A stretch of DNA of 64,000 bases, from NCBI RefSeq assembly GCF_003018255.1, contig NZ_CP027440.1. One strand, 5' to 3'. Both the position numbers and the translations under genes were made by a program. The notes beneath the pieces were generated by a model. That model was not told the origin of the DNA and made no database searches. It worked only from the letters and a program-made list of their open reading frames with translations. The stretch comes from Escherichia coli (GTDB taxonomy: Bacteria > Pseudomonadota > Gammaproteobacteria > Enterobacterales > Enterobacteriaceae). Below are positions 52,258 to 53,363 of the stretch, piece by piece. Position 1 is the stretch's first letter, and every line of letters begins with the position of its first letter.

Positions 52258-52626
52258 CTATACCCCAAAGCTTTCGCCACAGCCACATTCATTCTGGGCT
52301 TTAGGGTTGTGAAATTTGAATATCTGATTAAGTCCTTCACGAACGAAATCGACTTCCGTGCCATCAATAAACGGCATCGCTTGCAGCGGGACAAACAGCT
52401 TCGCGCCATCGTGTTCAAACAGCAGATCGTCTTTGTCCGGCTCGCTAACACTGTCGAGCACATAGCCAAAGCCCGCGCAGCCCGTTTGCTTCACGCCTAA
52501 GCGCACGCCGACCATACCCGGCTGCTTTGCCACCAGCTCGCGGATGTGGACAGCGGCTGCGGGTGTCAGCGTTAAGCCCTGCCAGGCGAAATCCTGTGGA
52601 TTAAAGGTTCCTGAATGCATGTCCAT
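52258..52626 (-). CDS. sufA: A-type Fe-S carrier SufA
   Basis: 122 aa ORF ending ...[11 protein letters not shown] with conserved Cys ligands; first gene of the suf operon. Confidence 0.94.
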
Positions 52627-52669
52627 CGATTTACCTCACTTCATCGCTTTCAGCGTATAACAGCATGTT

Positions 52670-52688
52670 AGTGATAATGATTATCAGT
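52670..52688 (-). promoter_or_regulatory. Fur box in the sufA promoter
   Basis: GTGATAATGATTATCAGTT matches the Fur consensus GATAATGATAATCATTATC, about 45-60 bp upstream of the sufA ATG. Confidence 0.65.
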
Positions 52689-52950
52689 TCAACCCAGCAA
52701 ACGCAGGGACTTTAGCGTAAAACATGCTTTTTACCTGCTTTTAATAAGCATAGACCCTGATGTGTGGGTTAACAGGCACGCTAAGAATTAGGTATCTCAT
52801 TGTTAGATAATGATTATTATCTAAGGAGCATTAAGGCTGTGATGAAAAAGAAAAAGTTGTATTGAAAATGACTATTTAAGGGATAGGTAAAAAAGTGCAG
52901 CGTTCAGAAATAAGAAAACCCTTAAGTCTGTGCGACACAGGCTTAAGGGT

Positions 52951-53018
52951 TTCTACCCCATCCGGCGCTTATCTCCGGCACTCACAGTGGCTTAGCTCTT
53001 GAAGGGGCGATAAGAATA
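52951..53018 (-). ncRNA. rydB: small RNA RydB (approximate ends)
   Basis: Placement from my recollection of rydB lying between sufA and ydiH on this strand; a perfect 11 bp hairpin AAACCCTTAAG/CTTAAGGGTTT at 52913-52950 plus U-rich tract lies just 3' and may be its terminator, so the 3' end may extend to about 52908. Confidence 0.45.
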
Positions 53019-53174
53019 ATCTCATAAAGCTAACCCGCCGTTTTAACACAAACTGCGATTAGTATTATTTTTGAACAATATCAGGCGGATAGATAAGCAG
53101 TATTAAGAAGGTCATCGAACCTGGACGGAGGTTAATCCAGGTCGATTTGGCAAAATTGCGGCATTAAGTCAGGA

Positions 53175-53363
53175 TCAATGCACGCCCAGACGCCAGGCAA
53201 AGTAGATTTCTTCTTTTAATTCAGCAGAAGAGAGAGTAAGCAGGTCAGCAAATTCAAGTTCTAGTTGTTTCAGACGTTTGAGATATTGGGCAGGTGAAAG
53301 ATTGCTCTGGTCACGGCGTAAAAATTCAATGGCCAGCTGGGTGGGATCAAGTTGAGTAGACAT
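53175..53363 (-). CDS. ydiH: small uncharacterised protein
   Basis: ORF track 89 aa; the form I recall is 62 aa starting MSTQLDPTQLAIEFLRRDQ... Confidence 0.75.
   Translation of the reverse strand: MSTQLDPTQLAIEFLRRDQSNLSPAQYLKRLKQLELEFADLLTLSSAELKEEIYFAWRLGVH

Follow-up and report, generated by a model that had tools for sequence, protein, structure and literature searches.

A Fur-like palindrome upstream of sufA in Escherichia coli is best explained as part of a predicted IHF element

Results

The spacer between sufA and ydiH (positions 52627 to 53174 of the window, the whole stretch of 64,000 nucleotides of E. coli DNA analysed here) is the known, well-studied control region of the iron-sulfur operon sufABCDSE, together with the small-RNA gene rydB. 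It is a textbook multi-regulator promoter next to a known small RNA, and this much is not new. The spacer also holds a palindrome that looks like a second Fur box and that Fur does not detectably occupy. We found that this palindrome is best explained, from its position and conservation, as the AT-rich 5' half of the predicted IHF element (ORE-II) in Escherichia, at which we infer the IHF contact. Its dyad symmetry and its resemblance to Fur sites are lineage-specific and probably incidental, and a strong hairpin further upstream is the terminator of rydB. We hold this composite account with good, though not complete, confidence.

The suf control region and its elements

The 1.5 kb around the interval are 99.9% identical to E. 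coli chromosomes and were found in 5,421 of 5,426 complete genomes. All genes here (sufB, sufA, rydB, ydiH and menI) are on the minus strand, according to the list of open reading frames and the RefSeq annotation. When aligned with K-12 MG1655, the window shows 99% identity and a single 1-bp indel, and for positions below 53089 the K-12 coordinate is the window position minus 52600 plus 1,764,360. The suf promoter strains of a published study carry a Fur-site mutation described as -26 ATA -24 and an IscR-site base described as -50 C (PMC12594620). These match the sequence only if transcription starts at 52658, which leaves a 5' UTR of 32 nt before the ATG at 52626. The features of the interval and its borders are listed below, with positions relative to this start and with the strand where a feature has one.

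52258 to 52626, minus strand: sufA coding sequence, first gene of sufABCDSE (open reading frame list, RefSeq annotation of near-identical E. coli genomes and of K-12)
52658, minus strand: sufA transcription start (+1), anchored on the published mutant descriptions (PMC12594620)
52672 to 52686: proximal Fur box TGATAATGATTATCA, the functional Fur operator, -14 to -28
52693 to 52716: region of the IscR type-2 site, about -35 to -58, with conserved CCCCTG...GGGGTTGAA
52745 to 52757: near-invariant block GGGTCTATGCTTA (suf orientation), -87 to -99, conservation 0.97
52793 to 52805, minus strand: position homologous to the IHF core, -135 to -147; in E. coli TAACAATGAGATA, with 7 of the 9 specified bases
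52803 to 52824: distal palindrome TTAGATAAT-GATT-ATTATCTAA, -145 to -166, Fur-like in this allele
52852 to 52888: OxyR site (ORE-I), -194 to -230, CTAT-N7-ATAG-N7-C(T/A)AT, a conserved block of the cross-genus alignment
52906 to 52952, minus strand: rydB intrinsic terminator, with a 17-bp interrupted stem (52916-52932 / 52936-52952) followed by UUUUCUUAUUU
52948 to 53020, minus strand: rydB small RNA, with the Rfam core at 52948-53008, the 5' end annotated in K-12 at 53020 and the dominant in vivo 3' end at 52948
53175 to 53363, minus strand: ydiH, the upstream neighbour, which bounds the interval (RefSeq annotation)

We compared these elements across 80 sufA loci from Enterobacteriaceae species. 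Conservation was computed as identity to E. coli over 26 non-Escherichia genera, from an alignment of 33 upstream regions, and amounts to 0.32 in the neighbouring spacer DNA, which we took as background. The promoter-proximal Fur box proposed by the first-pass annotation is fully borne out. It consists of AGTGATAATGATTATCAGT at 52670-52688, whose core at 52672-52686 matches the 7-1-7 Fur consensus at 14/14 and which contains overlapping units at 14-16/19 of the 19-bp consensus. It is found about 60 bp upstream of the ATG in 80 of the 80 loci, has a conservation of 0.95, and is flanked by Fur ChIP-exo peaks in eight strains (tables of PMC10164565). Through this operator suf is repressed when iron is plentiful. 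The IscR site, whose reported positions are -56 to -50 (PMC12594620), has a dyad that is partly conserved in the cross-genus alignment and is an activator site of suf.

Further upstream, the elements expected of an OxyR site (ATAG/CTAT at 10-11 bp spacing) are present at 52852-52888, with CAAT as the last element in E. coli, and this block has a conservation of 0.75. The far-upstream OxyR site acts on suf via an IHF-mediated loop, and both the binding of IHF and the requirement for it are stated in reviews (PMC8593673, PMC8300815). The proposed order upstream of +1 is Fur (-14 to -28), IscR (about -35 to -58), the invariant block (-87 to -99), IHF (about -135 to -166) and OxyR (-194 to -230), with IHF bending the DNA so that the distant OxyR could activate the promoter.

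This is the same locus as the E. coli suf promoter, with the same elements (ORE-I for OxyR, ORE-II for IHF, ORE-III for IscR and Fur) at the published positions. Nothing structural differs; the window strain has an A at 52813 where K-12 has a G. The three-part layout was reportedly described by Lee in 2004, Outten in 2004 and Mettert & Kiley in 2014. Lee et al. are said to have placed the elements at -236 to -197, -156 to -127 and -56 to -35, the middle range being the IHF element, and these positions agree with the conserved blocks of our cross-genus alignment.

One of these blocks has no evident owner. The 13 bp GGGTCTATGCTTA at -87 to -99 are conserved as highly as the Fur box in the 26 non-Escherichia genera. 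Compared by eye with the consensus sequences of IscR type 2, NsrR, the mar/sox box, CRP, sigma-E and sigma-54, the block fits none of them, and it has no match among the regulators known to act on suf. A block as invariant as the Fur box to which no regulator is assignable is a by-product of this analysis. A 10-nt inverted repeat of E. coli, ATGCTTTTTA / TAATAAGCAT (52724-52733 and 52742-52751), has its right arm in this block, and conservation in other genera does not extend to the left arm.

The distal palindrome resembles a Fur site

The near-palindrome noted on first reading about 180 bp from sufA exists and is indeed Fur-like. The sequence AGATAATGATTATTATCT at 52805-52822 precedes the sufA ATG (52626) by 179-196 bp. 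It belongs to a longer perfect inverted repeat than first noted, since TTAGATAAT (52803-52811) and ATTATCTAA (52816-52824) make 9-nt arms around a 4-nt spacer. We scored it against two forms of the Fur consensus, the 19-bp GATAATGATAATCATTATC and the overlapping 7-1-7 units TGATAATnATTATCA. It reaches 14/19 and 12/14, respectively, and the K-12 allele 13/19 and 11/14. Counting with the 19-bp form was too permissive (eight loci in the 64-kb window reach at least 14/19, and the distal site is not special by that count), and we used instead the 7-1-7 scores against Markov controls. Of the first-order Markov copies of the 548-bp interval, 0.4% contain a 7-1-7 match of 12/14 or better (P about 0.004), and three such sites are observed in the 64-kb window for about 0.2 expected. 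The 11/14 match of the K-12 allele occurs in 6% of the random copies (P about 0.06).

The resemblance to a canonical Fur box is partial. The palindrome holds one 7-1-7 unit, lies 150 bp upstream of the transcription start instead of over the -35/-10 hexamers, and has neither a second overlapping unit nor conservation in orthologues nor a Fur ChIP-exo peak. In a direct reading of 52799-52825, units offset by 6 bp reach 8/14 or lower; neither a second overlapping 7-1-7 unit nor the at least three hexamers expected for two Fur dimers was found there.

The key base of the match is polymorphic. We obtained allele counts at 52813, the central base of the palindrome, by exact 41-mer searches of complete genomes: of 5,421 complete E. 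coli genomes, 2,118 (39%) have A and 3,262 (60%) have G. The A allele is found in the window, O157:H7 Sakai, CFT073 and 042, the G allele in K-12, where it gives AGATAATGGTTATTATCT. The change from G to A is what lifts the palindrome from 11/14 to 12/14. A third allele, C, was seen in one draft genome and had no exact match among the complete genomes.

The site is not conserved as a Fur site either. The comparison of the orthologous promoters shows no conservation of the distal Fur-like site beyond Escherichia. At the homologous position, only the window and two other Escherichia species reach 14/19 or more, and one further match, in Pseudenterobacter, is at a neighbouring offset. Among the 26 non-Escherichia genera, the promoter-proximal arm of the palindrome has a conservation of 0.67, and the distal arm, at 0.34, is close to the background.

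The palindrome occupies the place of a predicted IHF element

We used the invariant block as an alignment anchor to search for the IHF core at a fixed offset from it. The core WATCAANNNNTTR was found there exactly in 43 of 75 non-Escherichia loci and with one mismatch in another 24 of the 75, and its N positions vary among these loci. At this position, all five Escherichia species have the 13-mer TAACAATGAGATA (52805 down to 52793), with two mismatches to the core. The palindrome begins about the first bases of the core position and extends upstream from there. IHF sites carry an AT-rich tract upstream of the core. In E. coli, the AT-rich tract 5' of the core position is the palindrome itself, ATAATAATCATTATC in suf orientation, and its ATTAT part is conserved across genera. 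The IHF core would thus have drifted to 7/9 in Escherichia, and only the promoter-proximal arm of the palindrome is conserved.

The first-pass annotation had left open whether the distal box belongs to suf, rydB or another transcript. Its position provides the answer: with the rydB terminator about 85-100 bp upstream of it, and the OxyR site and the promoter on its two sides, the box is part of the suf upstream activating region and not of rydB.

Fur does not detectably occupy the palindrome

We then turned to published Fur ChIP-exo data from nine E. coli strains grown aerobically in iron-replete M9, for which peaks were called with MACE and reported as thresholded lists (PMC10164565). Dataset 2 of that study assigns Fur peaks to sufA in eight of the nine strains. 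Two strains with a palindrome identical to that of the window, also at 179-196 bp upstream of the ATG, are the most informative. Mapped on the RefSeq records, the peaks of CFT073 precede the sufA ATG by 31-43 and 65-77 bp, and those of 042 by 30-42 and 63-75 bp. They bracket the proximal box (46-60 bp upstream of the ATG), and peaks 34 bp apart are resolved. Among the suf-region peaks retrieved for CFT073 and 042 from these thresholded, aerobic M9 data, there is none at the distal palindrome. For Sakai, which also has the A allele, the coordinates of the table come from an older sequence version and we used only the spacing between the suf and ydiE Fur peaks, which is the same as in MG1655 and W3110. 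Fur occupancy of the distal palindrome, the check suggested on first reading, is therefore not detectable in thresholded aerobic ChIP-exo: the peaks are only around the proximal box, which speaks against a second site.

The palindrome could nevertheless be a genuine second Fur operator, weak but stronger with the A allele, which competes with IHF and damps the OxyR-dependent induction of suf at high iron. Beyond the consensus match, uncommon by chance, this reading draws on geometry, since the palindrome overlaps the IHF element and competition is geometrically possible, and on growth conditions, since Fur binds 157 further sites anaerobically (anaerobic Fur ChIP-seq, Beauchene 2015). Yet there is no peak in CFT073 and 042 despite the identical sequence and the resolution of the method, the site is a single 7-1-7 unit, 60% of E. 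coli, K-12 included, have the weaker allele, and conservation ends with Escherichia whereas the proximal box is universal. We regard such an operator as very unlikely. Taken together, the lack of conservation, the polymorphic key base, the position in an IHF element and the absence of a ChIP-exo peak argue against the second Fur site suggested initially. A narrower version is just as improbable: in the A-allele strains (about 39%), the palindrome would be a single weak Fur 7-1-7 site overlapping the IHF element, and at very high Fur activity, for example in anaerobic, iron-rich growth, Fur could take the place of IHF and cut suf off from OxyR. If true, iron status would bear on peroxide induction in some strains and not in others.

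The symmetry of the palindrome is not maintained

A 9-4-9 dyad might also serve a different dimeric regulator, as an operator gained in the Escherichia lineage. Of the Markov copies of the interval, 2.3% contain a perfect inverted repeat with arms of 9 nt or more and a spacer of 10 nt or less (P about 0.02), and 99% of E. coli genomes have this dyad unchanged apart from the spacer base. However, near-identity within E. coli is expected of any intergenic DNA, and we found no match of the dyad to a known motif. Moreover, substitutions among Escherichia species number seven in the distal arm and one in the proximal arm, and none is compensatory, indicating that the dyad symmetry is not being maintained. 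E. albertii, E. whittamii and Escherichia sp. E1V33 all break it by changes in the distal arm only, without compensation. An operator of this kind seems very improbable to us.

It is just as improbable that the palindrome holds GATAAT as the -10 hexamer of a second sigma-70 promoter toward sufA, or of one on the opposite strand toward rydB: a consensus scan does give ATCACA-16-GATAAT at 52843..52816 on the minus strand, the same pair that RpoD genomic SELEX lists as the sufA 'constitutive promoter' (PMC3946193), but that assignment is a best-motif pick inside a broad low-resolution peak, the region has three promoter-like hits for 1.8 expected by chance, neither hexamer is conserved outside Escherichia, and the published sufA start is 150 bp downstream, with no start site found reported at the palindrome.

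We thus favour the IHF element as the explanation of the palindrome. That its symmetry and Fur-likeness are incidental remains an assumption, because both the Fur match and the 9-nt dyad are uncommon by chance and IHF sites are not palindromic. The finding matters little beyond annotation hygiene, but it suggests that an AT-rich IHF site can produce, as a by-product in one lineage, a look-alike of the Fur box that is convincing by statistics and only 135 bp away from a real one. Such look-alikes call for caution in motif-based regulon prediction.

The hairpin is the terminator of rydB

The presence of rydB in the sufA-ydiH spacer, presumed on first reading, is well supported. Rfam RF00118 matches 52948-53008 on the minus strand over its full length (model 1-61 of 61) with 83 bits (E = 1.6e-19), where the gathering threshold is 50. 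In K-12 the gene is annotated as b4430, which corresponds to 52953-53020, and the flanking genes, sufA and ydiH, are the same. Neither the Rfam model (61 nt) nor the K-12 annotation (68 nt) includes the conserved terminator hairpin, at whose foot both end. Other candidates were discarded: a plus-strand open reading frame of 35 aa at 52895-53002, antisense to rydB, was taken as spurious, and Rfam matches to mir-1278 and asX4 were far under their thresholds.

The perfect 11-bp stem of the first-pass annotation exists, is strong and adjoins rydB, but its coordinates, 52913-52950, were off by 2-3 nt. The arms AAACCCTTAAG / CTTAAGGGTTT are at 52916-52926 and 52942-52952, and past one mismatch they extend to 17 nt (52916-52932 / 52936-52952). 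The hairpin folds with -22 kcal/mol (z = -5.4) and is followed on the minus strand by UUUUCUUAUUU, where the plus strand has only UUUCUACCCC on its own 3' side. We collected by BLAST 27 sequences of the rydB core and hairpin from Escherichia, Salmonella, Citrobacter, Silvania, Leclercia and Pseudenterobacter. Compensatory double changes affect 12 of the 16 stem pairs (for example CCCTTAAG/CTTAAGGG to CGGTCAGC/GCTGACCG), very few pairs are broken, and a T-run follows the hairpin in every one of the 27 sequences. The compensatory changes and the T-run identify the hairpin, initially listed as an element of its own, as the Rho-independent terminator of rydB. A terminator scan gave no hits and missed the hairpin, probably because of the internal mismatch. 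The RepRanger survey lists rydB with a Rho-independent terminator, and the annotated length of the Salmonella rydB is 105 nt. This terminator would also insulate the suf regulatory DNA from the transcription of rydB and ydiH.

The abundant 3' end of RydB is not at the U-tract. Term-seq places the dominant end at K-12 position 1,764,708 on the minus strand, which is position 52948 of the window, with 2-4 million reads for 0.08-0.18 million at lpp, more than tenfold (PMC7815308). The Rfam model ends on this same base, five nt into the 5' arm of the stem. The published list has no end at the U-tract, but of all peaks within 100 bp it retains the strongest alone, and a minor end at the U-run is thus compatible with it. 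Since the abundant end sits five nt inside the RNA's own terminator stem, RydB is probably made as a longer, terminated precursor of about 100-115 nt and then trimmed at its 3' end.

M1 RNA of RNase P is a stable RNA matured by the removal of a 3' terminator hairpin. RydB would resemble it in having a conserved intrinsic terminator downstream of an abundant mature 3' end. It differs in that the mature end is 5 nt inside the stem and not upstream of it, and in that for RydB we infer the processing. The position of the end points to a 3' maturation step of an abundant and highly conserved small RNA.

The core of RydB is itself strongly constrained. About 40 consecutive positions at 52966-53004 (CCTTCAAGAGCTAAGCC...GAGTGCCGGAGATAAGCGCCGG) are invariant in six genera. 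The targets of RydB were described as unknown in a 2024 preprint, and such invariance is unusually strict for a small RNA without known targets.

The distance between rydB and sufA varies. In Salmonella enterica subsp. diarizonae and arizonae and in several Citrobacter, rydB and its terminator are about 800-1,900 bp upstream of sufA, for about 280 bp elsewhere, which indicates that extra DNA was inserted between rydB and the suf regulatory region. In these loci, the OxyR, IHF, invariant-block and Fur elements stay beside sufA.

Other observations in the window

A short perfect inverted repeat, ACCTGGA-N10-TCCAGGT, at 53119-53142, follows the stop codon of ydiH by about 35-55 nt on the minus strand. 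There is no clear U-run after it, and it may be a 3' stem-loop of ydiH.

Further away, TGATATTTATTATCA at 42965-42979 matches the Fur 7-1-7 consensus at 13/14. It is in the spacer between ydhY and fumD, about 250 bp upstream of ydhY. The ChIP-exo tables list intergenic ydhYVWXUT Fur peaks in KO11 and 042, and because these are at a roughly matching distance from the suf peak, this is probably a real Fur site.
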